Assembly (NCBI RefSeq): GCF_039543525.1
Contig: NZ_BAABJX010000017.1
Location: forward strand, 117,047 to 181,046
Origin: Algivirga pacifica
GTDB taxonomy: Bacteria; Bacteroidota; Bacteroidia; Cytophagales; Flammeovirgaceae
Direction: 5' to 3'
Length of the DNA stretch: 64,000 nucleotides
Every line of letters begins with the position of its first letter. Position 1 is the first letter of the stretch. Positions 977 through 47,380 of this stretch are shown piece by piece. The translations under genes and the position numbers were made by a program. The notes under the pieces were generated by a model, which did not search any database, had not been told where the DNA came from, and saw nothing but the letters and a program-made list of their open reading frames with translations.

Positions 977-996
977 AATTCTTATAATAAATACAT

Positions 997-3717: not shown

Positions 3718-3793
3718 GTGTAGGGGCGTAAAATTTAAAGTGATCAGTACTGTTGGAGCATCCTAATTGCTTTAATATATAAATGATTTCAAA

Positions 3794-4717: not shown

Positions 4718-4793
4718 AAGTAATCTTTATTTTGAATAAAGCAGTCTTAATAAGATGTGTTTTTTATAATTAATTTAAACTATAAGATACGTT

Positions 4794-6993: not shown

Positions 6994-7103
6994 GGGTGGC
7001 TTTAATTATCTATGATAATTAGAAAAAGGAGATCATTTTGTGAAAACTGTAGAATATTAAAGGAGATCTTTTATAGGTTATGCTATTAAATTAGAATTTT
7101 TTT

Positions 7104-7928
7104 ATGACAAATAAACCAAATTTATTTATTGTAGGAGCTCCCAAGTCGGGATCTACTTTTTTATTCCAGACTTTAGGAGAACATTCCGATATTTTTTTTC
7201 CGGTAATTAAGGAATTAAACTTTTTCTCGAAAGATTCCTTAGAAAAGGACTCTTATTATAAAGATTACAAAACACAAGATCTTAATAGTTACTTGAAGGG
7301 GTTTTCAAAAAATACAGGAGAAAAGTATTTAGTAGATAGTAGTGTGTCTTATTTTACTTTTGATGATGTTCCTCAAAAAATAAGAGACTTTAACCAGGAT
7401 GCTAAAATTATTATCATTACAAGAGATCCATATAAAAGAGCCTATTCTCATTATTTGATGGATAAGCGAATGGGATATGCTAGTGGTGATTTTAGTGATT
7501 ATCTGACATCAGAGGATTCTTTTCATTACAATCAATATGTTACGAATAGTCTTTACTATCAAAATTCTAAAAGGTACGTAGAGCTTTTTGGGCGTAAAAA
7601 TGTCTTATTTCTTCGATTGGAGAATTTAAGAGAGGATATGAGCAGTTTATTTGAGTTTTTAGATATACCAGCTATTGATATAGATTTTGATAAGAAGGTA
7701 AATGAGAACAAAGCTGCTAGAAATATTTTCGGTAGATATGCTCAGCATAATCGAGAATTGGTACAAAAGATGAAATTGTATTTACCAAGTCAGTTTTTTG
7801 AGCTTGCAAAGCTTTTTGTGTACAAGAAAGAAGCTAAGTCTGATAGAATTTCTACTGAAGATCTAAACTTATTAGAATCACTTATACATGATGATTACGA
7901 AATCTTTAAAAAAGAATTCTTTTCGTAA
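7104..7928 (+). CDS. Sulfotransferase
   Basis: 5'-PSB LFIVGAPKSGSTFLFQ and 3'-PB IIITRDPYKRAYSHY motifs; paralog of 3794..4717. Confidence 0.8.
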   Translation: MTNKPNLFIVGAPKSGSTFLFQTLGEHSDIFFPVIKELNFFSKDSLEKDSYYKDYKTQDLNSYLKGFSKNTGEKYLVDSSVSYFTFDDVPQKIRDFNQDAKIIIITRDPYKRAYSHYLMDKRMGYASGDFSDYLTSEDSFHYNQYVTNSLYYQNSKRYVELFGRKNVLFLRLENLREDMSSLFEFLDIPAIDIDFDKKVNENKAARNIFGRYAQHNRELVQKMKLYLPSQFFELAKLFVYKKEAKSDRISTEDLNLLESLIHDDYEIFKKEFFS

Positions 7929-8079
7929 AATTGTTTGCTCTTTGGTGTTAAACACCAGTTATAAATAAAAAAATATAATTGGGCTTGTTCTATATTGGAT
8001 TCTAATTTTATAGTTAGAAGCCAAATCAATATTATATCTTCAGTGTTCTGGATACTTATTAATTAATTTTAGAAATTTC

Positions 8080-8964
8080 ATGAAAGGCTTTATTTCATAT
8101 TATAAACGAAAATTGAGAATTTTTATCTCAAAGAATTTTGAACCACAAATTTTAAAATTTGAGAAGAGAAGAATTACGAAGTTATTAGAGAATAAAAAGG
8201 AAATCGTCCTTATTTATTCTATTGGTAAGGTGGGTTCGTCTTCAGTGTATAGTTCAATTAAGTCATCAGAAGTCAATATTCCTACATTTCATCTTCATTC
8301 GTTAGCCCCAGAAAGAATAGAGGAACAAAAGGAGTATTATAGATCGGGTGTTAGAAACTCTGTACCGTTTCATTTGATTCAGAGTACAGCAATGTTAGAG
8401 GCTTTAAAAAGCTATAATGGTAAGATATATTTGTTAACACCAATTCGTGAGCCTATTTCTAGAGAACTGTCTAGTATTTTTCAGGATTCTTTTAATTTTT
8501 CTAACTCTAAGGATGATCTTAAGAATGATTTATCTAGTACAGTAAATGACAAAGTGAAAGATCTTGTAAGTGAATTACCTGAATATGAGTGGTTTGAGAG
8601 AGAGCTTAAACAGGTGTTTAATATTGATATCTTTGATGTTAACTTTGACTTTGACCCAGATCAAGGATATCTTTATCAGACTTACGATAATTTGGATTTT
8701 TGTCTGGTAAGAGCGGAAAACCTGAATCAGTCATTTAGGGATATTACGAAGAAAATGTTTGGTGAACATAATTCTATTTCTTTATCCTCTGCTAATGAAG
8801 CATCTGATAAATTTTATAATACCAGCTACATAGAGATTAAAAAAGAGATTTCATTGGATGAAGAGCAGTTAGAGAAAGTTGTAAACTCTTCGTTTATTCA
8901 AAAATTTTATCCTGACTTTATTTCCAATATTAGAAGAAAATGGCAGAGAGAAATCCACGTATAG
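8080..8964 (+). CDS. Hypothetical protein, possibly divergent sulfotransferase-like
   Basis: P-loop-like LIYSIGKVGSSSVY and later PIREPISRELSS resemble PSB/PB motifs; otherwise unrecognised. Confidence 0.3.
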   Translation: MKGFISYYKRKLRIFISKNFEPQILKFEKRRITKLLENKKEIVLIYSIGKVGSSSVYSSIKSSEVNIPTFHLHSLAPERIEEQKEYYRSGVRNSVPFHLIQSTAMLEALKSYNGKIYLLTPIREPISRELSSIFQDSFNFSNSKDDLKNDLSSTVNDKVKDLVSELPEYEWFERELKQVFNIDIFDVNFDFDPDQGYLYQTYDNLDFCLVRAENLNQSFRDITKKMFGEHNSISLSSANEASDKFYNTSYIEIKKEISLDEEQLEKVVNSSFIQKFYPDFISNIRRKWQREIHV

Positions 8965-10100
8965 CGTTAATAGAACCAGTAGGAGGGCATGGAGGAATGA
9001 ACTATTATGACTATGGCCTGGCGAATGGTTTATATCATAATGGAGTAGAGGTATATTATTATACTTGTGATGAGACCGATAAAATCTATGAAGACAAGGT
9101 AAAGACATACCTTTATTATAGAAAAATATATAACAAGTCAATTAATAAGTTTAGAAGGCTATTACTTTTTGTGTTTGGGGCAATAAGATCATTGACTCAT
9201 GCCAAAGTGAATAAGATTAAAACAGCGCATATACACTTGTTTGGGGTTGAACCAATAGATTTTCTCCATATTTTTCTTATTAAGTTATTTGGATTTAAGT
9301 TAACAGCTACGGTTCATGATGTAGAGTCTTTTTATTTGTCTGATAAGGATAAGTGGTATCGTAACAAAGCATTGAATTGGATTGACAAGTTTATTGTTCA
9401 TAATGAGATTTGTAAAAAAGAACTATTAGAATCTACAACTGTAGAGGTAAGTGATATAAGTGTGATTAAGCATGGTAATTACTTACCTTTTGTGGAGCCT
9501 TTACTTTCAAAAGAAGAAGCGGGGAAGCAGCTTGGTATGCCAACAGATAAGATCAACTTACTGTTTTTTGGGCAAATCAAAACGGTGAAAGGGCTTGATG
9601 TTTTATTGAATAGTTTAAAATATCTAAGCGCAGAGGAACGATCAAAAATCAATTTGATTATTGCGGGTAAAGTTTGGAAAGATACGTTTGCAAATTATCA
9701 GCAAATCATTGATGAGAATGATCTTAATGAAGTTTGTATAACTAGAATAGAGTATATTCCTGATGAAGAGGTACATCTTTTTTACAGCCTTGCCGATTTT
9801 GTAGTTCTTCCTTATAAAAAGATCTATCAATCAGGGGTATTATTGATGTCTATGAGTTATCAAAAGCCCGTGATTGTATCCGATCTACCTGCTATGGTTG
9901 ATATTATTAAGGATGAGGAAAATGGATATGTATTCAAAACGAACGATACGCAGTCTTTAGCAGCAACGATTTCTAAGGTGATTGCTAACCCTCAAAGGTC
10001 GGGGGATATTGCCCAAGCTGCAATAGATACGGTATCCAATGAGTTTGATTGGAAATTGATAGGAAAAAAAACCACTGAAGTTTACCATAGTATCCTGTAA
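8940..10100 (+). CDS. Glycosyltransferase family 1 (GT4-type)
   Basis: 386 aa; C-terminal GT-B fold with EX7E-like region (NGYVFKTNDTQS), overlaps upstream gene by 25 nt. Confidence 0.75.
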   Translation: MAERNPRIALIEPVGGHGGMNYYDYGLANGLYHNGVEVYYYTCDETDKIYEDKVKTYLYYRKIYNKSINKFRRLLLFVFGAIRSLTHAKVNKIKTAHIHLFGVEPIDFLHIFLIKLFGFKLTATVHDVESFYLSDKDKWYRNKALNWIDKFIVHNEICKKELLESTTVEVSDISVIKHGNYLPFVEPLLSKEEAGKQLGMPTDKINLLFFGQIKTVKGLDVLLNSLKYLSAEERSKINLIIAGKVWKDTFANYQQIIDENDLNEVCITRIEYIPDEEVHLFYSLADFVVLPYKKIYQSGVLLMSMSYQKPVIVSDLPAMVDIIKDEENGYVFKTNDTQSLAATISKVIANPQRSGDIAQAAIDTVSNEFDWKLIGKKTTEVYHSIL

Positions 10101-10115
10101 GGAGGCTTAAATGTT

Positions 10116-11213
10116 ATGAGAAAAAAAGTTAGTATTATTGGAAGTGTAGGTATTCCGGCTAAGTATGGTGGGTTTGAAACCTTGGTGGAGTATTTGACGA
10201 AAGATAAAATCAATAGTGATATAGAATATCACGTTTTTTGTAGTTCTAAAGCTTATTCGGAGAAACTACCTGTTCATAATAATGCAAAATTGCACTATGT
10301 GAATTTTGAGGCAAATGGAGTATCCAGTATTATATATGATATTATTTCTATAATTAAGGCAAGTTTTTTTTCAGATACCATGCTGATTCTTGGGGTATCT
10401 GGGGCTTTAATTTTGCCAATACTTCGTTTATTTTATAGGGGGAAGATTGTTTGTAATATAGATGGGTTAGAACATCGAAGAGATAAGTGGAGTCCTTTTG
10501 CTAGAAAAATGCTTAAGTTTTTTGAAGGGATTGCCGTTAGAAATTCAGATGTTGTAGTAGCAGATAATAAGGGAATTTATGACTACGTGAAAGAAACGTA
10601 TGCGAGAGAAAGTAGCGTTATTGCTTATGGCGCTGATCATACGTCTTATGTAGAATTACAGGAAGCTACAAAAACGAAATATAAGATTCCGGAGAAATAT
10701 TACTTTTCTGTTTGTAGAATTGAACCTGAAAATAATACACATATTTTATTAGAAGCATTTTCACAAAGGGGAGATGACATTGTATTCGTTGGTAATTGGG
10801 ATAATAGTGAGTATGGTAGAGAATTAAAAGTAAAATATTCCAGCAAACAGAATATTACGTTATTGGACCCTATTTATGATCAGCATATTCTAAATCAACT
10901 TAGAAGTAATTGCTATTGTTATTTACATGGGCATAGTGCCGGGGGAACAAATCCATCTTTGGTGGAGGCAATGTATTTGTCTTTACCTATTATTGCATTC
11001 GATGTGAATTATAATAGATACACTACTTTTGGTAAGGCAATGTATTTTAAAAATGTTTCTGATCTTCATAATGTAATTGATACGTTATCCTTTGATAAAA
11101 TCAAAAGCTGTAGTGCAGATATGCAAGATGTAGCATCGTCTCATTACACTTGGTATAAAATTGCTGAAAAATACGAGGAACAATATGCGTTAGAAGTAAC
11201 TGTAAATCGTTAA
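10116..11213 (+). CDS. Glycosyltransferase (DUF1972 N-terminal domain + GT1 C-terminal domain)
   Basis: N-terminus KVSIIGSVGIPAKYGGFETLVEYL typical of DUF1972-GT1 rhamnosyl/glycosyl transferases. Confidence 0.65.
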   Translation: MRKKVSIIGSVGIPAKYGGFETLVEYLTKDKINSDIEYHVFCSSKAYSEKLPVHNNAKLHYVNFEANGVSSIIYDIISIIKASFFSDTMLILGVSGALILPILRLFYRGKIVCNIDGLEHRRDKWSPFARKMLKFFEGIAVRNSDVVVADNKGIYDYVKETYARESSVIAYGADHTSYVELQEATKTKYKIPEKYYFSVCRIEPENNTHILLEAFSQRGDDIVFVGNWDNSEYGRELKVKYSSKQNITLLDPIYDQHILNQLRSNCYCYLHGHSAGGTNPSLVEAMYLSLPIIAFDVNYNRYTTFGKAMYFKNVSDLHNVIDTLSFDKIKSCSADMQDVASSHYTWYKIAEKYEEQYALEVTVNR

Positions 11214-11304: not shown

Positions 11305-12504
11305 CTACACGATATTCATACTTTTAAAAGTTTCTCCTAGAATTGTATTTGATGGGAATTCTAACCAGTTATCTAGTAGTTCGGCATAAACTCGTCGAAA
11401 ATCAATTTTATATTGAACATCCCCTTTTTCTAAGTTTTCTAAGTCAATAGAAGCGTTATAAATACCCGAGGATTTCAATTTACCACCTAGTAGAAATAAA
11501 CTTCCAGCAGCACCATGGTCAGTACCTTTACTACCATTTTCTTTGACTCTTCTACCAAATTCCGAAAATATCATCACACGGGTACTATTCCATAATCCTG
11601 ATCTTCGCAAATCCTTAACGAAGGATTGTATTCCGTGGTTAAGTTGTTTCAATAGACGTTCTTGTCGTGGAAGTTGGGAGTTATGTGTATCAAATCCGGA
11701 AACTTTTAAATAATAAATTTCTGTATTACATCCTGCAGTAATTAAGTCAGCGGTTTGTTTTAATTGTTTCCCTAAGTTGTCAGAGGGATATTCTTGATGT
11801 GAATGTTTTGTTTTCATTTTCTCCAGAATGTATTCTGAGGAGCTATAGGTATTAGCCAATACTTGATAAAGGTAATCAACCTGCGAATTAGTATGTTCTT
11901 GGTGATGCTGTATTTGTTGTAGGAAATGATCATTAGTTCCTCTGATTAATTTACCACTATTAATTCCGAAACCGGATCGCTTTTGCCCTTGTAATGCTAA
12001 TATGGAACCACCGCTTAAATCAATGGCTTGGTGTGAATATATGTTTTTATTCGTATTGCCTTGAAATTCATCTAAATATTTTCCTAACCAGCCTTCACTG
12101 CTAGATGCTGAGGAAATATTTGCGGTATGCCAGATGTCCATTGATCTAAAGTGAGAGCGGTTGGGATTAGGGTAACCTACTTGGTTAATGATATTCATTT
12201 CTCCTTTATCGAGTAGATCTTGAAAAAAGGAAAGAGAATAGTGTAACCCCAGTTGTTTGTTCAGTTTAAGAACTTTTTGTTCTGCTATAGCTAATGTTGG
12301 ACGGTGTTCATAATAAAGGGAATTATTATAAGGAATAACAGTATTGAGAGAATCATTACCTCCAGAGAGCTGAATAATGACTAATCTTCTATTATTTCCA
12401 TCTAGGTTTAAGGGGGAATAAGCTTGAAGAAATTGTGGTAGAAAAAAAGCCCCTACAGTAGTGATAGCCGACTTTTTTAAAAACTCTCTACGATCATTGT
12501 TCAT
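11305..12504 (-). CDS. DUF1501 family protein (Tat-secreted, sulfatase/phosphatase-like fold)
   Basis: Twin-arginine signal RREFLKKSAITTVGAFF; length and composition match DUF1501 partners of DUF1800. Confidence 0.75.
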   Translation of the reverse strand: MNNDRREFLKKSAITTVGAFFLPQFLQAYSPLNLDGNNRRLVIIQLSGGNDSLNTVIPYNNSLYYEHRPTLAIAEQKVLKLNKQLGLHYSLSFFQDLLDKGEMNIINQVGYPNPNRSHFRSMDIWHTANISSASSSEGWLGKYLDEFQGNTNKNIYSHQAIDLSGGSILALQGQKRSGFGINSGKLIRGTNDHFLQQIQHHQEHTNSQVDYLYQVLANTYSSSEYILEKMKTKHSHQEYPSDNLGKQLKQTADLITAGCNTEIYYLKVSGFDTHNSQLPRQERLLKQLNHGIQSFVKDLRRSGLWNSTRVMIFSEFGRRVKENGSKGTDHGAAGSLFLLGGKLKSSGIYNASIDLENLEKGDVQYKIDFRRVYAELLDNWLEFPSNTILGETFKSMNIV

Positions 12505-12542
12505 ATTAATATTTGTTTACATTCTTTAGGCGACATGTTCGT

Positions 12543-13925
12543 TTAGCATACTTGGTATTCAGGAAGCTTGCTGGCTTTCGATAAGAAGGATTTTAATTGC
12601 TGCTCATTAGTTATGTTTCTTCTTAGTAGTGGTATTGATGACGGATTGGGGTTTACTTGTAAGAGATAATTAAGTAAAATTTCATGACTGTCCTTTTTAT
12701 CGGTATTACCTGTTACATAGTTCATAAATTCGTCTAATTTTACCTCTATTCGCATCTTACCAGCCTCTTTTGTTTCTTGAAAAGGGTCGTTGTCATCTCC
12801 TATTTCTGGTGGCTCCAACGAAAGAGGGACTGCTTTTAATAAGGACTCTACCCATTTTAGTCGAAACATCAGTCGGTTATTATCAATCCAATAAGTTCCA
12901 CTTTTCCATCCGGCTACATTGGGAGGAGATAATAATATTTGGCCTAGTATCCTCTGAACATATATTTGTTTTTGGGGAGGAGAAATTTTCAAGTTAAGTT
13001 GACGCTGTGTTCCTACTATAAAAGTAATGGGAGATTTAATCTGAGTTCCTATGTTTTCATTTTCATAGAACCAATTAGATAGAAAAATAGCTTTTAGGAC
13101 AGGTAAGATTTCATAATTTTCTTGATACATCAACTTAGCGAGTATTTGTACTCTCTCTTCACGAATGTGTTCATTGACTAAGTAGCTATAAAGCTTTTTA
13201 CATATATAATAAGCCGTTTCCTTTTGCTTAAGAAGAAGTAGTAAGACATCTTCACCTTCAAGGGCATCAGTTACTCCCAAAACAGTTTTGACTCCGGTAT
13301 CATGTTTTTTACGATGCAGAAAAAACTGTCCCTCTTTGTTGATTTTCCACCCTGTAAAGCATCGTGCAGCTTCTTGTATATCTTTTTCTGTATAAACAGT
13401 ATCCCTCCCTAAGGTAAATAGTTCCATAACCTCCCGGGCAAAGTTTTCATTAGGAGACCCTTTTACATTCTGTATATTATTGAGATAAGTTAACATCGCA
13501 GGTGATTTAGAAACTTCGATAAGCATCGTTCCAAAATTACCTAAAGCATTTGCTCTGAGTATCTCTACATATTGTTGTGCAAAAAGAGGGTTTCTGGGAG
13601 CACAAGCAAAGTGATCATGCCAAAATAAAGCCATCTTCTCTCTTATGCCTACGCTATTGACCATATACTCTAGCCATTGTAAGTTGAGTTTTTGTATCGT
13701 TTTTCCACTTTTAATTCTTATATCTTTTTTGTTGGAGGTTTGTCTGATATTGAATGGAGTGAATTCGGAAAGATCCTTAAAAGGAAGCGGTTTGTAAAGA
13801 GAAGAGTTACTAATTAATTGATTGATAACTTGATTTTTTGATTGTTGTTGTAGTGTACTTACTAGGTTTAGAGGAATACCAAAGCTAGCACGCCAATAAA
13901 GGTGTTGGATATGTTGCTGTTCCAT
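12543..13925 (-). CDS. DUF1800 family protein
   Basis: 460 aa; conserved pairing immediately upstream of DUF1501 on the same strand. Confidence 0.7.
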   Translation of the reverse strand: MEQQHIQHLYWRASFGIPLNLVSTLQQQSKNQVINQLISNSSLYKPLPFKDLSEFTPFNIRQTSNKKDIRIKSGKTIQKLNLQWLEYMVNSVGIREKMALFWHDHFACAPRNPLFAQQYVEILRANALGNFGTMLIEVSKSPAMLTYLNNIQNVKGSPNENFAREVMELFTLGRDTVYTEKDIQEAARCFTGWKINKEGQFFLHRKKHDTGVKTVLGVTDALEGEDVLLLLLKQKETAYYICKKLYSYLVNEHIREERVQILAKLMYQENYEILPVLKAIFLSNWFYENENIGTQIKSPITFIVGTQRQLNLKISPPQKQIYVQRILGQILLSPPNVAGWKSGTYWIDNNRLMFRLKWVESLLKAVPLSLEPPEIGDDNDPFQETKEAGKMRIEVKLDEFMNYVTGNTDKKDSHEILLNYLLQVNPNPSSIPLLRRNITNEQQLKSFLSKASKLPEYQVC

Positions 13926-14136: not shown

Positions 14137-15627
14137 TTGTCAATTATTAAATATGTATTGAGATCGCTAATGAAAAGATTTTTTATTCCCATTTTTTTTC
14201 TACTGATAGCTCCATTTTTATTAAGTAAGGGTTTTTCACAACAGGATTCTATCCAAGTAAAGGTGTCTGCCCAAGCTGTGGTAGCTACAACCGGTTTTCT
14301 CCCACATTACATGATATTCAGTCAAGGAGGACGTTGGGCTGATCAACAAGCAAGTGCTCTTTGGGGGGCTGAAATGAATGGAGGTTATACGTTGGTCGAT
14401 GGAAAGTTGCCTTTAAAGGCTTCTTATGGAGTAGAAGGGCTACTGAATACCGCAAGTGGTCAAAGCATGCTTAGAAAAGCTTATGGAACCTTACAATGGG
14501 AAGATATCATCATTAAGGCAGGTTTGTTTGAGCATACTGTAGAGCAACATTCTGATTTATCCTCTGGATCTTTAGCGATCAGTAACAATGCTCGTCCAAT
14601 ACCGGGTATAGGAATTTATACGGATGACTTTATGGATGTTCCTTTTACTTATGGATTTTTTCAGGTGAAAGCTGGTTTGGGACATTTTTGGATGGGGCAA
14701 AATAGATATGTTCCAGGTACATTACTCCATGAGAAATATTTGATTGGTAGTGTCAATGGAGGGAAGTATGTGCCTGTGAAAGTATGGGGAGGTTTGGTGC
14801 ATTTTGGACAGTGGGGAGGTACCCATCCTCGTTTTGGAGAAGCTACAATCAATTTTGAAAATTACATTAGAATATTATTGGCTCAAAGTGCGAATATCAA
14901 TGATGAGTCAACTACGGGTAGCGATCAGGTTAATGCCTTGGGTAATCATTTGGGAATTTGGACTTGGGGTTTAGAAGCAGATTTAGTGAAAGATGTTAGT
15001 CTAGGCTTATCGATTCAAAAACCTTATGAGGATGGATCTGGACAAACGGATGCTGGGTTTAGACACTTTGATGGACTATATGGGATGGTTGTTAAGCAAA
15101 CAAGATGGAGCTATTTACCTTCCGAGTTTACATTTGAATATTTAAATACTACTGAGCAGTCGGGACCTACACATGATCTATCCCAAGGGCTTTATGGAGG
15201 TGATAACTATTACAATAATAGCTATTATCGATCGGGTTGGACCTATAATAACTTGATTTTAGGCTCTCCACTTATGACTACAAAAAAGAGAGAATCTCAA
15301 ATTACAGATGAGGAGGAGTTGAATGTTCAAAGCATTATTAATAATCGTGTAAAAGCCTTCCATATAGGCCTTAAAGGCTCTGTCAATAATCAACTAGTTT
15401 ATCAACTGTTGGCAACTCACTCTCAAAACTATGGTATCTACGAGAGCCTAGGCGGCCCCTACCGCTACGAATCCGGCAAGAACCAAAGCTACCTCTACCT
15501 CCAACTGGACTATCAACTCAAGAAGGACTGGAGTGTAAATGCCTCTATAGCCCATGACTTTGGAGAGATCTACCAAAGTACAGCACTTAGAGCTGGTATA
15601 GCCTGGACTGGCCTGTGGCGCTATTAA
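14137..15627 (+). CDS. Outer-membrane beta-barrel protein, possibly capsule-assembly Wzi-like
   Basis: Signal peptide, alternating amphipathic beta-strands, C-terminal aromatic (…WTGLWRY); ~490 aa size and proximity to glycan locus suggest Wzi. Confidence 0.4.
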   Translation: MSIIKYVLRSLMKRFFIPIFFLLIAPFLLSKGFSQQDSIQVKVSAQAVVATTGFLPHYMIFSQGGRWADQQASALWGAEMNGGYTLVDGKLPLKASYGVEGLLNTASGQSMLRKAYGTLQWEDIIIKAGLFEHTVEQHSDLSSGSLAISNNARPIPGIGIYTDDFMDVPFTYGFFQVKAGLGHFWMGQNRYVPGTLLHEKYLIGSVNGGKYVPVKVWGGLVHFGQWGGTHPRFGEATINFENYIRILLAQSANINDESTTGSDQVNALGNHLGIWTWGLEADLVKDVSLGLSIQKPYEDGSGQTDAGFRHFDGLYGMVVKQTRWSYLPSEFTFEYLNTTEQSGPTHDLSQGLYGGDNYYNNSYYRSGWTYNNLILGSPLMTTKKRESQITDEEELNVQSIINNRVKAFHIGLKGSVNNQLVYQLLATHSQNYGIYESLGGPYRYESGKNQSYLYLQLDYQLKKDWSVNASIAHDFGEIYQSTALRAGIAWTGLWRY

Positions 15628-15640
15628 TAGCTTTAAAGTA

Positions 15641-15675
15641 AGCCCTACCTCCCATCTCGGTAGGGCTTTTTTTGT
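15641..15675 (+). terminator. Rho-independent terminator
   Basis: AGCCCTACC…GGTAGGGCT stem followed by TTTTTTTG. Confidence 0.7.
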
Positions 15676-15697
15676 GAATTGTTCAGACCTATTATTT

Positions 15698-15895
15698 CTA
15701 CAGGAAGTAATAGGATTTTTTGCTTCTGGAAAAGCCTATGGGTTTCTTTATGGTTTCTTCCACTTCTTTGAAAATGGCGAATAATTCTCTAGTTGAGACA
15801 TTTAATTTCTCACCTAGTTCTTGAGGGGTGCCTGTACTTTGGCTTTCGATTAGGTGTTGAAGTAGGATAACTTTACTTTTTGCTGCTTTGGTCAT
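15698..15895 (-). CDS. Small stand-alone winged-HTH protein, subtype A
   Basis: 65 aa; conserved L..LI......TGTP..L..KLN.S.REL…KP.G.SR.KKSYYFL shared with four neighbouring paralogs; resembles HTH_11/DeoR-N type. Confidence 0.6.
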   Translation of the reverse strand: MTKAAKSKVILLQHLIESQSTGTPQELGEKLNVSTRELFAIFKEVEETIKKPIGFSRSKKSYYFL

Positions 15896-16076
15896 TCTTT
15901 ATTGATTTTAATGGTGGTTAATATTGTATGTTTAGGATTGATTATGTCGCTGTCTACGGAAAATGATCAGGCTCACCTGTTATGATTTATCGTTTATAAT
16001 CGATGCGACAGCGCTAAGCTTAATGACTATAGTGCGGGCTGATTTATCCGTAGACCTTTTTGGTGACATTTACTGC

Positions 16077-16277
16077 CTATAGGAAGTAGTAGGATTTCTT
16101 CGTTCTGGAATATCCTACAGGTTTACCTAGGTGTGTTTCCATCTCCTCGAAAATAAAACAGAGCTCTCGTAATGAGATGTTGAGCTTTTTTGCCAGTGTC
16201 TCAGGGGTACCTGTGTTCTGGTTTTGGATTAGATATTGTAGTTGATCAACATAGGTATTATTTGCTGCTGGTGTCAT
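16077..16277 (-). CDS. Small stand-alone winged-HTH protein, subtype A
   Basis: 66 aa paralog, ends KKSYYFL. Confidence 0.6.
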   Translation of the reverse strand: MTPAANNTYVDQLQYLIQNQNTGTPETLAKKLNISLRELCFIFEEMETHLGKPVGYSRTKKSYYFL

Positions 16278-16424
16278 GTTGTTTTGGGTTTAAATAGTGG
16301 TTGATAGAATGAGATAAATTGATGTAATCACGAGATATTTTATTTATCGGTTATTACTTATCGTTTAGGGTTAAAATAACTGTTTGATCCGATCCTCGAT
16401 CTTTCATGATTAGCTTATGGCGTT

Positions 16425-16661
16425 TTATTTATTGATGGGAATCGAAATGCTATCCCCTTCCTGAAAGAAATAGTAGGTTTGTCGAAATCGGGAATATCGT
16501 ATATCAGCCTGCATAGTGGATCTGATTTCAGAAATAAGTTGGAAAAGGTGTCGTGTGGAGATACCCATCTTTTCAGCACATTCCTGAGGGGTTCCACTGC
16601 TTTTGGTTCGAATAAGATAATCCAAGTGATTGATGCGATAAACGTATTTCGTCAGGGACAT
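16425..16661 (-). CDS. Small stand-alone winged-HTH protein, subtype B
   Basis: 78 aa; MSLTKYVYRINHLDYLIRTKSSGTPQE…YYFFQEGDSISIPINK; subtype with DIRY.R…TYYFF.EGDSI tail. Confidence 0.6.
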   Translation of the reverse strand: MSLTKYVYRINHLDYLIRTKSSGTPQECAEKMGISTRHLFQLISEIRSTMQADIRYSRFRQTYYFFQEGDSISIPINK

Positions 16662-16735
16662 TTGTTTTCTTTTTAAGGGTTCAAGTAAAGATTAATTGTT
16701 CTAAGTAGATCTATTATGGACTTTGTGTTACTTCT

Positions 16736-17005
16736 TTATAGGAAATAATAGGATCTCTTCTTTTTGGAATATCCAATGTTCGTCGTCCAAATAGCTTGAG
16801 CGTCTTGCATACGCTTGAATAACTCCCCTCCTGAGATATTGAGCTTTTTGGCAAACTCCGTAGGGCTACCGGTACATTGCTGTTGAATAAGTTGTTGCAT
16901 TTTGTTGACTACCTCTACATAGCTGGCAAGTGGCATAATATGTTTTTTAAAGGTTGGTGGATAAATATGGTTAGCTATTTCCAATACCCCTAAGGCTTGT
17001 TTCAT
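16736..17005 (-). CDS. Small stand-alone winged-HTH protein, subtype A
   Basis: 89-aa ORF (true start may be internal Met giving ~66 aa); ends KKRSYYFL; 4-bp start/stop overlap with upstream paralog. Confidence 0.55.
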   Translation of the reverse strand: MKQALGVLEIANHIYPPTFKKHIMPLASYVEVVNKMQQLIQQQCTGSPTEFAKKLNISGGELFKRMQDAQAIWTTNIGYSKKKRSYYFL

Positions 17006-17301
17006 TTTTGATTATCACTTAGCGGTGAAATAGTATTTTTAACGGGGAACTGCTTTTTCGGTTTTAGCTTCTCTACAGGAACTGCTATACTATCGCCCTC
17101 TCGAAAGAAGTAATAGGTTTTACCCTGACGGCAGTAGCGAATATCGGTGTTGAACGTAGACTGTACTTCTTCCAAAAATTCGTAGAGGTGGCGTTCAGAA
17201 ATTTGAACTTCTTGGGCAAAAGCCTTAGGAGGTCCCGTTCTCTTAGCTTTTAGTAGGCTGTCCATTCGGTTTAATCGTTCGATATAAGTCTCTAATGACA
17301 T
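17002..17301 (-). CDS. Small stand-alone winged-HTH protein, subtype B
   Basis: 99 aa; MSLETYIERLNRMDSLLKAKRTGPP…YYFFREGDSIAVPVEK; first gene of the array. Confidence 0.6.
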   Translation of the reverse strand: MSLETYIERLNRMDSLLKAKRTGPPKAFAQEVQISERHLYEFLEEVQSTFNTDIRYCRQGKTYYFFREGDSIAVPVEKLKPKKQFPVKNTISPLSDNQK

Positions 17302-18363
17302 AAGATAGCTGTTTAAGGATTTATAAAGTATTTGCGTTGAAAAGGCAGAAACGAAGGAGATAACAAGTTGTTGATCTGTGTTTTTAATGGTTAAGGTAAA
17401 TGATTAATTGTTATCAGTTGATCAACAATGCGCGTTGTTCTTCTTGTTGGCTATGTTATAAAACTATTCTTTGTTTAAGGTTATTTACAAATGCTTGTTC
17501 AGTATTTTCCTACAAGGAGAAAACAATTACCGTGAACAAAATGATGCTGTGGGATTTTTGTGATGATGTGAACTTGGAAATGCTGCTGACACAAATAGTG
17601 CAGTAAGGGTAAAGAATAAGGATGTTTGTGTAGTATTGAGATGTAAGAAAGCCCTAAGTAGTTATGCGTAAACATGGCAGGAAATGGGCTATCTCTAATG
17701 CTTTAATACGTGAAGAATATGATTATAATTTCCTTGTGATTTTACTGTTAAAGTACCCCTCCATTAATTCATTGTAGTATCTCAGATACTTTACAATAGA
17801 AATGTGAGTATAAAAGCACAGTATCAAGGAAGGTAATATTAGTCGTTTGAAGCCTTTTTGCTGAGGTATTTTTTGGAGTGAATAATATGTCGAAAAATAA
17901 GGTCTTCGATCATAGTATTTATGATGAATATAGAGAAGAGTATATAGTGAATGTACTTACAGCCATAGTTTATATAGACTAGTTGTTTACAGTGTTATGG
18001 ATTGATTTACCTTGATTTCAGAATTGATTACGTAAAATCTTACATATGAAATAAGGAAGTGCTCCACTTTTTTGAAGGATATTTTTGTGGCTGTCTTGGT
18101 CGTTCTTTTAGGATAGGGGGTATAGTACAAGAAAATCTTGTATTATTAGTACCTTTAGTTAAAAGGCAATAAGTGTTTTCTATATAGACATCGGACCGGA
18201 CTATAAAAATATCATTAGAGTTTATCACGGTTAGTTGTCTATAAGTAGGAAAAAGCGATGAACTGGTTCAAGAGTTCAAATTCCGAACGAGGTACGAGTA
18301 AGGAATTGCTCTTGGACCAAGCGGTTTACTACCTCGGTTAAGGTTTACCGTACTACTTTTGAA

Positions 18364-18509
18364 CTAGTGGACTAAACGTTAAATAAACTGTTAGTTTACT
18401 GCTGTTTAGCTCTAAGAGCGTTTCGCCTTGCTCGTGCCTCGCAGGCTACACTGAACTCTTAGAGCAGATGTCTTTTTTGTATAAGGAAACTTAGCAATTA
18501 GTCCACTAG
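18364..18509 (+). other. Candidate structured RNA element (nested long-range stems + T-run)
   Basis: 12-bp perfect inverted repeat CTAGTGGACTAA (18364-18375) / TTAGTCCACTAG (18498-18509) enclosing a 10-bp stem GCTCTAAGAG (18409-18418) / CTCTTAGAGC (18456-18465) followed by GATGTCTTTTTTG; lies in a 1.2-kb ORF-free region. Confidence 0.2.
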
Positions 18510-18521
18510 GGATGTAGATAT

Positions 18522-21050
18522 TTATCGCCTGTTAAAAAGACGCTCAATAAAGTTTTTCTTTTTAGGAGGCTCCTCATACCTTCTTCTATAAGTAGGATAG
18601 TTATTTTTTCTTGGGGAAGAAGGGGTCGTACGTTCATCGTTACTCTGACTACTTACATCTTCATCTTCATTATCAGAAAGGCGTTCAGGAGATTGTCCTC
18701 CACCAAATAATCCATCGAAGAAATTCCATGTTTTCCTTCTTCTTTCAATAGGTTCCATACTGAATTCCTCACAGTCCAGGGCCCTTTGGCTAAAGAAATT
18801 AGTATCAGGAAACTTACTTCTGGTATAATGATAGAAGCGAGAGTCCCTATTCAATTGCTGGAAGAACCTAGCAGAAATAGGCAGGGCCATGACAGCCCCC
18901 TGACCCAAACGAGTACTTCGGAAATGAATGGAAGGATAAGCAGACCCCACCCAAGTACCTGTTACAAGGGTAGGGGTAAAGCCCATAAACCATCCATCAG
19001 CTTGTGATTGAGTGGTACCTGTCTTTCCTCCCATATCATTGGGTAATCGATAGGAAGTGCGGATACTTTTGGCAGTACCTCTGTCAACAACACCTTGCAG
19101 AATCTCTCTCATATAGCGAGCGGTTTTACGGGAAAGGACTCTTTCCCTAGGCTCTTTTCTAGCTCTCCATATCACCTCTCCCTCTTTATTGGTAATGTAG
19201 GTGATAATCACTGGCGCTACTTTATACCCCCCATTGGCTAAAGGGCTATAGGCATTAGCCATCTCAAATAATGATAGGGAGGATGTTCCCAGTGCAAGAG
19301 ATGGTACTTCTTCCATCGTACTCTGAATACCCATAAGACGGGCTTGTTCTGCTACCTGCTCAGGGCCGACCTCCATCATTAATTTCACGGATACGGTATT
19401 GACAGAGTTAATCAAGGCACCTTTTAGGGAGTAATAGCCTTCATGTTGCCCGTTGGCATTGGATGGCGCCCAACTGTCGTATTCTTCATAGGTGACTTTT
19501 TCATTTGAAAAATAGTCACAAGGAGTGTAGCCATTTTCTAGTGCCGTGGCATATAAGAAGGGCTTAAAGGTAGACCCTACCTGTCGCTTGGCATTGGGGT
19601 GTACGTGGTCATAATGAAAAGTGTCGAAGTTAATACCACCCACCCATGCTTTTACATGTCCATTTTCGGCATCCATCGCAACGAATCCACAATCCAGAAA
19701 TCTTAGGTAATGCTTGATAGAGTCCAGAGGGCTCATGCTCAATTCTTTATCCCCTTGCCAGGTGAAAACGTTCATTTTCAAGGGTTGTTTAAAGCTATTC
19801 ATAATCTCCTCTTTGGAAAGACCTTTTGCTGATAGCGCTTTATAACGTTCTGATTTATAGATCTCCTGTTGAATGACTTGTGGTGTTTTCTCCCAAGGTT
19901 CCCTTCCCTTCCAATGTTGATCAAAGAGTCCCTGAAGCTTTTTCATATGCGTTTTACTAGCCTTTTGGGCATACGATTGCATACGACTGTCAATCGTAGT
20001 ATGAATGTTGACACCATCGGTATAGATGTTGTAGAACTCTCCATCTTCTTTTTCGATCGTTTGACAGATTTTTTGAGCCTCTTGACGAATATATTCTTTG
20101 AAATAAGGAGCAAAGTCTTGATTCTTTTTATTAGACGAATAACGAAGCTGTATAGGCTTAGAAGACAGTTTCTGATAGGTTTTTTCAGACAAATACTCAT
20201 TTTTGACCATTTGCTTTAACACTACATTTCTTCTTGTTTGAGCACGCTCTGGGAAGAGTCGTGGATTATAGTAATAGGTAGCTTTTAATAGACCAATTAA
20301 CACGGCAGCCTCCTCTACACTAAGTTGCTTAGGTGATTTACTGAAAAATCGTTCAGAGGCCGTATGTATACCATATGCCCGTTCTCCAAAGGGAACGGTG
20401 TTTAGGTATAAAGTCAGAATTTCTTCTTTACTATAGACTTCTTCTAATCTTAAGGCTAGGATGGCTTCTTTGAGTTTACTGATAGGAAGACTAAGTACAC
20501 CCCAATCCTCTCTTGGATAAAGATTTTTTATCAGTTGTTGACTGAGTGTACTTCCTCCTCCAGCGCTTTCTCGTTGCATGAGGATAGATTTGACTAAAAC
20601 ACGGGCATAACTTCTCCAGTCTATACCATGGTGTTCATAAAAACGTTCATCCTCTGTGGCTACAAGTGCTTGAATAACGTGAGGGCTAATAGCCTTATAG
20701 GCTACGCCTGAACGTTCTTGGAAATAATACTTCCCGATAAGCTTTTGATCGGCACTAAAGACTTTAGAAGTTTGAGCATGTTCAATTTGCTTCAATTCTT
20801 TCTTGGAAGGAAGTTTTCCAAAAAGTCCCAGGTATACGCTAGTCGTTAGTAGAAGAGTGAAAACAAACCCTCCGACGACGAGTAGCTGTAATGTTTGTAA
20901 AATTCTTTTGCGAGGAGATTCCTGGTAGTAGTGTACGACTTTATAGGATGCCTTTGTTACATGATGGAATAAGACCTCTCGCCCACGAAGAAGGTAAGGA
21001 AGTAAAGGTGTTAGGAAGCTGATAAGTTGCTTGAATAGTTTGTTAATCAT
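18522..21050 (-). CDS. mrcA: Penicillin-binding protein 1A (class A PBP, transglycosylase + transpeptidase)
   Basis: GT51 motif TEDERFYEHHGID; transpeptidase SxxK (STFKP), SVN, KTGT (GGKTGTT); N-terminal TM anchor; low-complexity C-tail. Confidence 0.9.
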   Translation of the reverse strand: MINKLFKQLISFLTPLLPYLLRGREVLFHHVTKASYKVVHYYQESPRKRILQTLQLLVVGGFVFTLLLTTSVYLGLFGKLPSKKELKQIEHAQTSKVFSADQKLIGKYYFQERSGVAYKAISPHVIQALVATEDERFYEHHGIDWRSYARVLVKSILMQRESAGGGSTLSQQLIKNLYPREDWGVLSLPISKLKEAILALRLEEVYSKEEILTLYLNTVPFGERAYGIHTASERFFSKSPKQLSVEEAAVLIGLLKATYYYNPRLFPERAQTRRNVVLKQMVKNEYLSEKTYQKLSSKPIQLRYSSNKKNQDFAPYFKEYIRQEAQKICQTIEKEDGEFYNIYTDGVNIHTTIDSRMQSYAQKASKTHMKKLQGLFDQHWKGREPWEKTPQVIQQEIYKSERYKALSAKGLSKEEIMNSFKQPLKMNVFTWQGDKELSMSPLDSIKHYLRFLDCGFVAMDAENGHVKAWVGGINFDTFHYDHVHPNAKRQVGSTFKPFLYATALENGYTPCDYFSNEKVTYEEYDSWAPSNANGQHEGYYSLKGALINSVNTVSVKLMMEVGPEQVAEQARLMGIQSTMEEVPSLALGTSSLSLFEMANAYSPLANGGYKVAPVIITYITNKEGEVIWRARKEPRERVLSRKTARYMREILQGVVDRGTAKSIRTSYRLPNDMGGKTGTTQSQADGWFMGFTPTLVTGTWVGSAYPSIHFRSTRLGQGAVMALPISARFFQQLNRDSRFYHYTRSKFPDTNFFSQRALDCEEFSMEPIERRRKTWNFFDGLFGGGQSPERLSDNEDEDVSSQSNDERTTPSSPRKNNYPTYRRRYEEPPKKKNFIERLFNRR

Positions 21051-21825: not shown

Positions 21826-24800
21826 TTAATGTTGTATTATGACTTTTTTCATGATACTCTGTTCAGCTTCCTGTATTTGAATAAAGTAAACGCCATTAGG
21901 AAGTGTTTGAAGGCCATCAATTTTATACTGATTTCCACTTATGTAACCTTGATGTATTACTTGTCCATTGGTATTGTACAAGTACACAGGTGTATTTTGT
22001 CCTAGCTTGCCTCTTGCTATAAATACCTCATTTTGGGCAGGGTTAGGGCTAATTGAGTAGGTAGTTTCAGCTGATTTGGCACCAAGTCTACTATTGAAAG
22101 CATAGGAGAAGTACTGTCGGCACCCTTCAGTATCTGTGGTCATTAAGTGGTACATGCCTGCTTGTAGACCGTAAATAGTACTACCTTTTGCCGCAAATCC
22201 ATTAGGACCACTCCAATCATAGCTCAAACGTGCAGCTCCTCCTGTCACGGTAACGGCTAGTATACCATCTGTGCTACCAAAGGTTGTGGGAAGCTGTACG
22301 GATGCAATTTCGATCAATGGAGTTTGTTGACAAGTGCTATCTTCGGTTGTATTACTATCTGAGCTACTATATCCAATCATATAGGTAAAGCGTTCAGTGC
22401 AGAGGTTATTATCAGTAATGCTTACTGTATATTCTCCTGAGGCTAAGTTATCAATGCTTGGTGAAGTGGATGAGTAGCCGTTAGGACCAGACCAACGATA
22501 GGTATAAGGTGCGTTCCCCCCTTCAATTGTAATAGATAAGGATCCATCGGCTGTACCATTGGAGGAGGCGTGTCGGTGTTTGACCAGAGCTTCCATGAAG
22601 ACATCTTCACATGCGATAAGTGTTGTACTATCTGTTATAGATGGAGTGAAATTAATAGCAATATTACTAACACATTGCATACTATCAATGACTAATAAAT
22701 AATAGAGTCCTGAGTCAATCGCAATAATCTGTTCGTCTTGGGAACTGAAGCTGTTGGGTCCTGACCATTGATAGGAGTAAGGGGCGGTGCCATTTGTGAT
22801 GATCACACTGAGGAGACTATCTACAGAGTTGTCTAACAATGACATTGTACATACAAAGCTGCTATCGTTGGATGTGGAATCGGAAACCGTTACATCAAAA
22901 TAAGCAAAGTCAAAGCATTCCTCGCCACTGTATACAATAACCATGTAACGGCCAGAAGCACTAACTTCAACAGTAGCCGTATTGGCCTGAAAGTTATTCG
23001 GCCCTGACCATTGATAGGTATAAGGTGCGTTCCCTCCGGTTGTGGTAATATCAATAGAGTTGTCTGTGATTGTACCACTTACCTGAAGGTCACATTCTTC
23101 TTCTATACTTATCGCAAAGGTGGCTGAATCTAGACACCCCTTATTATCACTGACAAATACAGTATAGTTTCCGGAAGTCGGAGCGGTGATATTGGCTTTG
23201 TTGGTAATAAAGTTATTCGGTCCTTGCCAGAAGTAGGAATAAGGAGCTGTTCCTCCTGTGATAGTGGTATAGATGGCATTGTCCGTAATACTTCCGCTTA
23301 CTTGTAGGTCACATTGTTCGGGAAGGTCTACTAGGAAGGATGCTGAATCCATACAATTTTCGTAATCGCTAACGAAAACAATATACGTACCTGATGTAGG
23401 TGCAGTAATATAAGGTTTGTTGGAAATAAAGTTGTTGGGACCTTGCCAGAAATAAGAGTACGTGGAGCTGCTTCCCGATACAGTGGTTGTAATAAGATCT
23501 CCTTGTACGCTACCGTCTACCTGAAGGGTACAAGGAGCTTTAACTTCTATATTGAATGTAGCAGAATCCAGGCAGCTTCCATCACTTTCACTGACGAATA
23601 CAATGTACTTACCGGATACGCTAGCAGTAATGGAAGACTCCTCTGAGGTGAATTTTTCAGGGCCTGACCACAAGTAAGTATAGCTTCCTGAACCTCCATT
23701 TACTGAAGTCGTAATGGTATTTCCATCAATAGTACCGTTGATATTTAACTCACAAACCTCTGCAGCTTCCACAAGGAATGAGGTAGTTATACTACAGTTA
23801 TTAGCATCGCTGACGGTAACGGTATAAGTACCAGAAGTGGGTACGAGTACATCTTCGGTAGTAGCCGAAAAGTTGTTAGGTCCTGACCAACTATAGGTAT
23901 AAGGTGCAGTTCCTCCGCCACTGTTTAAATCAATAAAATATTGCTGTACTTCTCCTTCTGCTGTAAGTGCACAAACCTCAGGGATAGTAACACTAAAAGA
24001 GGCCGTGTCACTACAATCATTGGCGTCTTTAACAATTACAGTATAATCGCCGGAAACAGGTGCGGTGATGTTTTTCTGGATTGAAGTAAAGTTATCAGGC
24101 CCAGACCAGCTGTACGTATAGGGTGCTAAACCCCCTTCCACATTGGTAGTAATAATATTATCATTTATGACACCCGATAAACTAACCTGACAAGGTTCAG
24201 GTACTGTAATGTCGAACTGAGCTGTATCAGCGCAACTTTGCTCACTATCAGTAACGATAAGGGTATAGCGACCAGAAATAGGAGCAACAATAGAAGCTTC
24301 ATTGGAGCTGAAGTTATCAGGCCCAGACCAAACATAGGTATAAGGAGCAAAACCTCCGGATACTGTAGTGGAAATGTTATAGTCAACGATACTTGCTTGT
24401 ATGCTTAAGTCACAAACGGGAGTGTTTACTTCTACCGTGAAAGAAGCTTGTGCGAAGCAATCATTACTGCTACTGACAAAGACCGTATATTCTCCTGAAA
24501 TAGGGGCGACAATATTAGCTTCAGAGGAGCTGAAGTTTTCAGGGCCAACCCATAGATAAGTATACTCTCCGTTACCTCCCTCTACTAAAGTAGTTATCGC
24601 TGCTTCGTCAACCGTTCCGCTTACTTCTAAAGAGCAGATCTCAGAGATGAATACCTCAAAGGAGGCGGTATCCTGACATTGTTCACGATCGCTAACAATC
24701 AGGATGTAGTTTCCAGAGACAGGAGCAGTGATGGTTGAGTCTGTACTGCTAAAGTCATTGGGGCCAGACCAAAGGTAAGTATAAGGGGCTGTACCTCCTT

Positions 24801-33065: not shown

Positions 33066-33068
33066 GGT

Positions 33069-33295
33069 GTTGAATCGTTGAATTGTTTAATGATAACTGG
33101 TCGTAGGCTGATAACTGGTCGTAGCGTCCACGCTGATAACTGGTCGTAGGCTCCAGCCTACGACCCACCAGCGATTTCACGGAGGCTCCAGCCTCCAGTT
33201 TCACATTACTGGTCTTTGCGTCCTCGCAAAGACCAAACCATCAATTGAGCGTCCACGCTCAAGAATGCTACCATTCTACCAATAAAACACATCGC
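33069..33295. repeat. Composite intergenic repeat (GTTGAATCGTTGAAT arm, 3x GATAACTGGTCGTAG, 2x GCGTCCACGCT, 10-bp palindrome GGTCTTTGCG/CGCAAAGACC)
   Basis: Direct and inverted repeats visible in sequence; shares the 15-mer arm with MITE copies elsewhere in window. Confidence 0.6.
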
Positions 33296-33303
33296 ATAAC
33301 GCT

Positions 33304-47261: not shown

Positions 47262-47380
47262 ATGGGCTAGCCCACGGCACCGCCGTAAATTATAAATAGC
47301 CCACGGCAACGAAATGAAATTCAAATAGCCCACGGCAATGAAATGTAAATAGCCCACGGCAACGCCGTGGGTCACCAAAA
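47262..47380. repeat. Tandem repeat, 4 copies of TAGCCCACGGCAA(C/T) at 24-29-bp spacing, ending in hairpin CCCACGGCAACGCCGTGGG
   Basis: Copies at 47268, 47297, 47326, 47350; between convergent gene ends. Confidence 0.6.

Follow-up and report, generated by a model that had tools for sequence, protein, structure and literature searches.

A five-gene array of effector-less winged-helix proteins in Algivirga pacifica, orphan members of a Bacteroidota family found in double-glycine peptide export clusters

We analysed a tandem array of five small genes in a 64-kb stretch of DNA (the window) from Algivirga pacifica (Bacteroidota, Cytophagales, Flammeovirgaceae). The array comprises five open reading frames (ORFs) on the minus strand within 1.6 kb. 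An initial annotation of the window had listed five such frames encoding proteins of 65–99 residues, and we found them at precisely the coordinates it gave (Table 1). It had also distinguished two subtypes, A and B, in the order B-A-B-A-A from the promoter side. Alignment confirmed both the division and the order, which reads B2-A3-B1-A2-A1. All five proteins share a core of 65–66 residues with invariant M1, L15, G22, P24, S34, L38 and YYF. The A-type proteins end at …SYYFL, and B1 and B2 extend beyond this point as F(Q/R)EGDSI(S/A)(I/V)P(I/V)(N/E)K. B2, which is labelled in databases as a DNA-binding or hypothetical protein of Algivirga pacifica, consists of the core, the tail 'REGDSIAVPVEK' and a basic extension of 21 residues. 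A hidden Markov model (HMM) of the five genes, searched against six-frame segments of the window, picked out these five alone (E-values of 1e-33 to 1e-36, 6e-35 for B2; runner-up 0.91), so their likeness to each other is far beyond chance.

The initial annotation had taken a 4-nt overlap of the first B/A pair as a sign of translational coupling. The overlap (ATGA, B2 stop and A3 start) is present for the longest A3 ORF. The homology of A3 to all its paralogues and to relatives from elsewhere, however, begins only at Met24, and tblastn alignments of relatives start at this codon too. The coupled start is therefore uncertain, and translational coupling of B2 and A3 is no more than possible.

Pairwise amino acid identity amounts to 57% for A1–A2, 47% for B1–B2, 44% for A2–A3 and 26–40% between A and B proteins. 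Synonymous sites are saturated among the five genes (proportion of synonymous differences, pS, 0.65–0.92; nonsynonymous divergence, dN, 0.3–0.7), and the ratio dN/dS lies between 0.15 and 0.39 wherever it could be computed (0.21 for A1–A2). Since the five ORFs are still intact despite such divergence, they have been under long-term purifying selection. They are real, old and selectively maintained genes. Chance ORFs were considered and rejected. Fragments of a single, larger, pseudogenised regulator, named in the initial annotation as a result that would overturn its reading, are ruled out as well: every copy spans the whole domain and has a Met and a stop codon of its own.

The proteins had been described as HTH_11-like winged helix-turn-helix (wHTH) domains, as in the N-terminal domains of WYL and BirA regulators, and this assignment holds. 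A Pfam scan of each protein, which had been proposed as a check, gave weak results: A1 and A2 touch HTH_11 (PF08279) with 18.9 and 16.3 bits at a cutoff of 25 bits, A3, B1 and B2 gave no HTH_11 match, and none of the five matched HTH_17. Among 65 aligned family members, 50 match HTH_11 at E ≤ 0.01 (best 5.1e-12), and PF08279 is listed in the precomputed annotation of many relatives. Other models are matched by fewer of the 65: HTH_17 weakly by seven, the 'excise' model TIGR01764 by three, TIGR00122 by four (E ≥ 0.003), and NCBIfam models of the HTH_Mga type (AcpB/EbpR/MafR) by eleven, in the form of a weak N-terminal match (best 1.9e-7). Searches of the five window proteins against NCBIfam, PHROGs and PADLOC returned no specific or meaningful family; residues 7–65 of B2 touch positions 3–59 of the 229-position WYL profile of PADLOC with an E-value of 0.0099. 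A sequence profile search of the PDB yielded only spurious matches to antibody heavy chains via an 'AVYYC..YYY' motif.

The AlphaFold2 model of B1 (120 sequences) has a mean pLDDT (predicted local distance difference test) of 86.9. It consists of three helices (residues 3–18, 25–32 and 36–49), the second and third joined by a turn, followed by a β-hairpin wing (strands 54–57 and 62–65), which is the arrangement of a wHTH domain. The same core is seen in the model of a relative (P0173) with pLDDT values above 90. The A-type proteins stop exactly where strand 2 ends, and the monomer model of B1 shows the B-specific tail as coil. A Foldseek search with the B1 model resulted in TM-scores of 0.62–0.71 to the wHTH domains of BrxR (PDB-entry 7qfz), CapW (9c5g) and NiaR (9ebr and 1j5y, TM1602). 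Further matches were MgaSpn (5way) and regulators of the Rrf2 and MarR types. All matches are DNA-binding wHTH domains, with probabilities of up to 1.0 and E-values of about 0.02, as expected for so small a domain. Judged by the models, the five proteins are HTH_11-type winged helices in fold and motif.

To a single-sequence search in a word-indexed database B1 responded with itself only. An exhaustive profile search, on the other hand, gave 2,210 representatives of 50%-identity clusters at E ≤ 1e-3, 323 of them at E ≤ 1e-10. Nearly all are stand-alone proteins of 65–135 residues, and all named source organisms are Bacteroidota. Their names are generic ('HTH domain-containing', 'YafY' or 'biotin operon repressor', the last being an automatic source name). 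The family consensus reads MxLxxYxxRxxRxDxLIxxKxTGTPxELAxKLxISERxLYxxxxELKxxxxxPIxYxRxxxSYYYxxxGxxxIxF. It has the B-type tail; B is therefore the canonical form and A a truncated derivative. No curated family model exists for these proteins, and no published description of the family was found in the literature searched. Small wHTH regulators as such are known. As a variant of them, the truncated A subtype and the array of five A and B genes are new.

To survey the genomic context of the family, reference genomes were sampled by means of a degenerate DNA pattern encoding TGTPxE[LF]AxKL, in uncentred blocks of 8 kb. The sample favours members carrying this motif. Because of this bias and of the uncentred blocks, the context frequencies are lower bounds; all locus counts are given among the matches listed. 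A true family member was present in 98 of 120 pattern loci.

The family usually sits in a peptide export cluster with double-glycine (GG) leaders, a context that the initial annotation had missed. A gene for an ATP-binding cassette (ABC) exporter with a C39 peptidase domain (peptidase-containing ABC transporter, PCAT) shares the 8-kb block with the family member in 28 of 98 family loci, compared with none of 22 chance-match loci. In 21 of 90 cases, the 1.2 kb downstream hold a GG-leader ORF on the strand of the family member; the corresponding numbers are 0 of 90 for the antisense strand and 4 of 90 upstream. In two Lewinellaceae loci (L001 and L002) the order is PCAT, AprE-like protein, HTH protein, three precursors of 64–66 residues with …NGG or …KGG leaders, DUF6624 and further unknown proteins. 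L003 and L004 contain the HTH protein and a precursor and, further on, a SPASM-like enzyme (faint match). The HTH protein of L005 and L006, to which B1 is 46% identical over 82 residues (tblastn), is followed by two membrane proteins, the PCAT and GG peptides. L129 encodes a LanC-like protein (faint match), a C39-VKOR-thioredoxin protein, the HTH protein and a Cys-rich GG precursor, and L130 a PCAT, the HTH protein, two GG precursors and, at some distance, an AprE-like protein. A locus from Flammeovirga sp. (L082), a member of Algivirga's own family, reads HlyD-like protein, PCAT, HTH protein and an ORF resembling an outer-membrane factor.

In these relatives the family member is most plausibly the transcription factor of its export cluster, and the family as a whole seems to provide the resident transcription factor of double-glycine export clusters (bacteriocins or peptides made by the ribosome and modified after translation, RiPPs) in Bacteroidota. 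To our knowledge, no regulation of double-glycine peptide clusters has been described in this phylum. In one such cluster, a RiPP-mining survey of Bacteroidales mentions 'an HTH domain containing gene', with no further study (PMC10352776).

Some of the loci share a recurring and apparently uncharacterised Bacteroidota peptide cluster (L001 2411–11951, L003 6001–9475, L130 4817–12318). It starts with PCAT, HTH protein and one to three GG-leader precursors. These are followed by proteins of ~280 residues (DUF6624 in L001), ~330, ~70 and ~355 residues (faint SPASM match) and by an AprE/HlyD-like protein.

At least a third of the relatives carry the motif L(S/T)xxE(L/M)xxIxGG 20–30 residues past the wing (at least 49 of the best 147 non-self relatives; 37 of 115 in another set). 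The double-glycine leaders of neighbouring precursors bear this same signature. Past the GG come 10–40 residues in which GG..N.F..F..SP[ED]F[LM]D[WY]..L recurs as a loosely conserved motif. One tailed member touches the NCBIfam model 'leader_Chryseo'. The likeness to the adjacent precursor is close in L076, where RKLSLDEMANIK in front of GG in the HTH tail compares with KKLSLDQMAVVK in front of GG in the leader, and in L003, with DKLEKQELVKIK in the tail and SKIEKAEMSKVK in the leader, again each in front of GG. Over 22 loci, the mean similarity of a tail to the leaders of its own locus was 4.55 compared with 2.57±1.29 for permuted pairs, a preference that is not significant (p = 0.07) and comes from noisy extraction in which only L076 and L003 are striking. 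Residues 80–107 in the P0173 model are disordered (pLDDT < 50), with no docking of the tail to the core. The tail may fuse the regulator to an exporter-recognition element; no published description of such a fused, leader-like tail was found. Tailed forms are found in this context more often: 18 of 28 GG-tailed forms lie in an export-cluster context, compared with 28 of 77 untailed or short forms (Fisher p = 0.014). For A-like truncated forms the number is 2 of 12, and L127 and L128 are examples of orphan short-form relatives.

None of the five window proteins has a leader-like GG tail; the tail of B2 is KLKPKKQFPVKNTISPLSDNQK. The 64 kb contain no C39-ABC exporter, no radical-SAM enzyme and, outside the frames of other genes, no GG-leader ORF. 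Since exporter, precursor and maturase are all absent from the window, the array lacks the usual partners of the family and is an orphan in this respect.

Arrays of this kind had been called unusual, and within the family they are. Among the matches listed, 97 of 104 family loci have one copy per block, six have two and one has three (at a spacing of 2.4 kb). Five adjacent copies in 1.6 kb form the largest array observed. As to whether B–A pairs recur in related genomes, adjacent paralogue pairs do (L025 and L026), and the databases hold no close orthologous array. There are also fused two-domain proteins (P0005, P0006 and P0048). In a neighbour-joining tree, the two positions of pairs and fusions fall in separate clades; pairing therefore arose more than once in the family. 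Pairs and fusions are an indirect hint, of the Rosetta-stone kind, that two units act together. The same tree, which is a rough one, places the five window proteins in one clade, away from the tandem pairs of other taxa, and thereby points to a lineage-specific expansion. The earlier suggestion of a duplicated B–A pair fits the identities given above. The divergence of B1 from B2 about equals that of A2 from A3, from which we infer that the pair was duplicated as a unit. A truncated A copy would have arisen beside a B gene, the B–A pair would then have been duplicated, and A2 would later have given rise to A1.

A related arrangement was observed in Marinifilum breve (L009 1095–6256). Three A-like members of 69–74 residues lie at a spacing of ~2.4 kb, each before a secreted protein of ~600 residues. 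Two of them directly precede such proteins, of 603 and 635 residues, the second with a C-terminal tail of the type IX secretion system (T9SS) type. This looks like a repeated module of a small wHTH and a secreted protein.

Each subtype has its own conserved upstream element. The blocks in front of B1 and B2 are identical in 35 of 50 positions (p ≤ 0.003 by shuffling), and their 22-mer core is found at these two sites alone, with 0.01 expected. The B2 block holds an imperfect palindrome, TTGTTGATCAaCTGATAACAA (17408–17428); read from the sequence, the inverse palindrome GATCAACAAcTTGTTATC follows 50 nt downstream at 17359–17376. A1 and A2 have the element TAAACGATAA(A/G)T(C/A)ATAAC in common, approximately 80–100 nt before the ATG (16 of 18 positions identical, shuffle p = 0.007), and its 10-mer TAAACGATAA occurs twice in the window compared with 0.17 expected copies. 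The A and B upstream regions show no similarity to each other (p 0.25–0.9). Of the shared motifs for which a search of 17302–17650 had been proposed, the B block was found, which recurs at B1; none is common to A and B. The upstream blocks of each subtype persist while synonymous sites are saturated.

The motif ATAACCGATAA has nine matches with up to one mismatch in the window, compared with 1.7 expected. Among the exact copies, one precedes A2, another lies 8 nt in front of a HupE/UreJ-like gene (start 48376), and an inverted pair stands upstream of a DUF5009 gene (start 57207) within a SusC/SusD locus; the sites at the latter two genes are intergenic. We regard the CGATAA and palindrome elements as candidate operators; which of them would be bound by A and which by B proteins is a matter of inference. 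A separate element for each subtype, the CGATAA-repeat box for A and the palindrome block for B, suggests subtype-specific auto- or cross-regulation. Convincing promoter -7 boxes of the Bacteroidota type were not found by eye.

Table 1. Features of the array, of its surroundings in the window and of tailed relatives. Positions are those of the window unless a locus is named.
Feature	Position	Strand	Remarks
B2	17002–17301	-	99 residues; B-type winged helix; first gene of the array
A3	16736–17005	-	A-type; longest ORF 89 residues; 66 residues if the start is Met24 (ATG 16936)
B1	16425–16661	-	78 residues; B-type
A2	16077–16277	-	66 residues; A-type; terminates directly past β-strand 2 (…SYYFL)
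A1	15698–15895	-	65 residues; A-type; final gene of the array
B-type block upstream of B2	17399–17448	-	direct repeat
B-type block upstream of B1	16687–16736	-	ends 25 nt short of the B1 ATG
A-type element upstream of A2	16344–16367	-	TAAACGATAAGTAATAACCGATAA; CGATAA direct repeat containing ATAACCGATAA
A-type element upstream of A1	15979–15997	-	ATAAACGATAAATCATAAC
ATAACCGATAA/CGATAA-repeat sites	48384–48394, 57220–57251, 57297–57314, 16344–16354, 15987–15997		
Polysaccharide locus	71–11213		three sulfotransferases, RmlC/RmlD, flippase (Wzx), Wzy, several glycosyltransferases
DUF1501/DUF1800 genes	11305–13925		
Wzi	14137–15627	+	convergent with A1
GC-rich hairpin	15635–15673		inverted repeat (AAAGTAAGCCCTACC / GGTAGGGCTTTTTTT) between Wzi and A1
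AT-rich spacer	17302–18521		1,220 nt; GC 0.31–0.37; between B2 and PBP1A
PBP1A	18522–21050		
SprB/T9SS adhesin	21826–27354		
Tailed relatives	L001 6001–6324, L003 6001–6339, L130 7001–7327, L076, L067		proteins P0007–P0151, P0152–P0266

The array lies between a polysaccharide locus and PBP1A, next to a non-coding stretch of 1.2 kb, as the initial annotation had stated; Wzi is on the polysaccharide side. Three separate sulfotransferases imply that the surface polysaccharide is sulfated. The GC-rich hairpin between Wzi and A1 is a probable bidirectional terminator closing the array. In the spacer we found no recognisable ORF, no match to the family HMM in six frames and, with tblastn of ORFs from RiPP clusters, no remnant of a cluster gene. 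It contains a 19-nt inverted repeat with a loop of 108 nt (18364–18382 and 18491–18509) directly after the PBP1A stop codon. A search of Rfam gave nothing at the gathering threshold for the whole window, and at E ≤ 1 only a meaningless miRNA match on 15600–18600. No tRNAs were found in the window.

Several other features of the window were recorded. A protein of 709 residues without a Pfam match is followed by one of 1,643 residues with DUF3686 ('ATPase involved in DNA repair'), DUF7902 and AAA domains (30936–38235); this pair of large ATPases is possibly defence-related. A 718-residue protein (44251–46407) combines S-layer homology repeats with a C-terminal Peptidase_C39_2/C70-like cysteine protease. 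This protein is no ABC exporter and apparently has no relation to the PCAT partners of the HTH family. At 48422–48523 we observed a perfect tandem repeat of TGCTCAC (14.6 copies, 100% matches), which covers the last codons of a gene with a peptidyl-prolyl isomerase domain (minus strand, 48502–49356) as well as the promoter region of the HupE/UreJ-like gene. It looks like a tract for phase variation by slipped-strand mispairing. Another tandem repeat, with a unit of 24–29 nt and 2.1–2.7 copies, is located at 47293–47364 between a MaoC-like gene and the HupE/UreJ-like gene.

Based on the family context, the models and the upstream elements we propose the following reading, to which we assign a probability of roughly 0.55. 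The five proteins would be sequence-specific, dimeric DNA-binding regulators that descend from the transcription factor of a Bacteroidota double-glycine cluster, have lost both the tail and the cluster, and form two subtypes under separate upstream control. The array is best read as an old expansion, within the Algivirga lineage, of minimal, effector-less wHTH proteins that are now orphans. Elsewhere in the family, a single copy usually sits beside the C39-peptidase ABC exporter, directly upstream of the GG-leader precursors, and most plausibly acts as the transcription factor of the cluster. In Algivirga the leader-like C-terminal tail and the linkage to the exporter would have been lost. The proteins presumably bind DNA as dimers, possibly as A/B heterodimers, an association that is plausible. 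Their targets would then lie outside the array, either in trans or among the neighbouring genes of the cell envelope.

A number of points weigh against this proposal. No target gene is adjacent. A1 is followed by a convergent gene and a probable terminator. The window proteins remain below the HTH_11 cutoff of Pfam. None of the databases searched offers a close orthologous array for comparison, and the neighbour-joining tree that joins A and B in one clade carries no support values. The conserved upstream blocks could in part reflect shared ancestry rather than function. Finally, a scan for promoters of the sigma-70 type, which does not model Bacteroidota promoters, gave 7 sites compared with 9.3 expected.

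Other explanations account for part of the data. Decoys or antagonists of full-length regulators had been considered in the initial annotation. In such a model the A proteins, cut after β-strand 2 and without the additional C-terminal strand of the consensus, would be dominant-negative; they might titrate B proteins, or full-length relatives encoded elsewhere in the genome, into inactive heterodimers or compete with them for operators. The consensus does have the B-type tail 'G..xIxF' where the A proteins stop at YYFL, B–A adjacency is seen twice, and fused and paired paralogues elsewhere imply hetero-association. We nevertheless regard the decoy function as unlikely. A-like forms stand alone elsewhere, and the three copies of Marinifilum breve, each before a large secreted protein, look like ordinary local regulators. 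The A genes of the window retain a distinct upstream element, and their recognition-helix region is under purifying selection, as would be the case for autonomous DNA binders. In addition, the tail of B1 was modelled as coil in the monomer, so that a role of it in dimerisation would be hypothetical. Less probable still is that the array is what remains of decayed double-glycine loci, with the spacer as a scar and with regulators that are functionless or loosely repurposed. The strong link of the family to such clusters and the unusually long, low-GC, non-coding spacer next to the array would be explained in this way. Intact ORFs at saturated dS and dN/dS values of 0.15–0.39 would not, nor is any remnant of a cluster gene detectable in the spacer or in the rest of the window, and orphan short-form members are common in other genomes.

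It is also conceivable, but very improbable, that the domain binds double-glycine leaders instead of DNA, including its own tail in the tailed relatives, in the manner of a chaperone or of a RiPP recognition element (RRE). That the gene of a small winged-helix protein directly adjoins those of precursor peptides, and that many relatives have a leader-like tail, could be understood in this sense. RREs of the PqqD type, however, begin with strands that form a three-stranded sheet, and three helices come after. In our models the helices come first and the hairpin last, and Pfam gave no PqqD match, so that a PqqD-like RRE was rejected. The signature TGTP.ELA.KL.IS.R.LY points to DNA-binding HTH_11 domains, as do the best structural matches. 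The tail is not docked to the core in the model, and the window proteins lack tails as well as peptides encoded nearby. The initial annotation had mentioned excisionase-like HTH_17 proteins, which would belong to an integrated element or prophage, as an alternative reading. The weak HTH_17 matches in 7 of 65 relatives, the three matches to TIGR01764 and the fact that the relative in L003 adjoins a tyrosine recombinase and an IS91 transposase could be cited for it. We consider it effectively refuted: the five window proteins have no meaningful HTH_17, PHROGs or PADLOC match; no integrase or transposase domain was found among the large ORFs scanned across the window, in agreement with the initial annotation, and no tRNA or phage gene in the 64 kb; the signature pattern gave two matches in 2.9 million viral contigs, neither of them a family member, compared with at least 120 loci in reference genomes; and the GC content of the array (0.35–0.41) resembles that of its flanks. 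A type II toxin-antitoxin pair was rejected too, with B and A being paralogues of one wHTH fold and without matches to toxin families or PADLOC.

Returning to the descent of the array from cluster regulators, a more far-reaching version of it can be formulated, which we judge to be quite unlikely as a whole. The family would represent undescribed regulators wired to C39-ABC exporters. Its tail would mimic a leader and be bound or cleaved by the exporter peptidase, and the transcription factor would either report the load of the exporter or signal through the released tail peptide (GG..N.F..F..SP[ED]F[LM]D[WY]). The Algivirga proteins would be a tail-less, heterodimeric A/B set with a CGATAA-box regulon in trans, e.g. 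the genes starting at 48376 and 57207. If true, the leader-like tail as an exporter-recognition element would constitute a new coupling of a transcription factor to a peptide exporter, and the tail-less A/B set would be a natural experiment in the evolution of a regulator after loss of that coupling. Considered alone, the array is an expansion within one lineage and moderately unusual. It is of value mainly because it leads to a large Bacteroidota family, a profile of which would be a practical marker for peptide clusters in genome mining of this phylum.

In comparison with known systems, the HTH_11 domains of BirA and NiaR and the N-terminal domains of YafY, PafBC, BrxR and CapW have the same fold of three helices and a β-hairpin. 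In contrast to these regulators, the window proteins comprise only 65–99 residues and lack any effector domain, be it WYL, 3H or biotin ligase. They end 0–34 residues past the wing, without a WYL match in Pfam, where WYL regulators continue, and the biotin-protein ligase domain of BirA is absent. Regulators of the Mga/AtxA type have ~480 residues with two HTH and PRD/EIIB-like domains. The similarity to them is weak and N-terminal, covering only the first ~60 residues (17 bits compared with a cutoff of 130 bits), and MgaSpn (5way) is among the fold matches. Excisionases and other HTH_17 (MerR-like) proteins are likewise small, stand-alone winged-helix proteins, but here neither a model match nor a recombinase partner was found. 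The five proteins do not belong to the WYL, BirA, Mga or excisionase groups, since they lack the further domains or partners by which these are defined. Regulators of bacteriocin clusters in Gram-positive bacteria (two-component systems and the Rgg/ComR type) are, as far as we know, unrelated in sequence to this family. A further comparison is with transcription factors of PCAT-exported GG-leader clusters. In the 64 kb that hold the window array there is neither a PCAT nor a precursor or maturase, whereas relatives of the window proteins occupy the very position of such a factor, with an adjacent PCAT or downstream GG-leader ORFs in L001–L006, L129, L130 and L082. Compared with all HTH_11 regulators considered, the family has its own signature (…YSR..(Q/K)(S/T)YYY and G..xIxF) and its own genomic niche.

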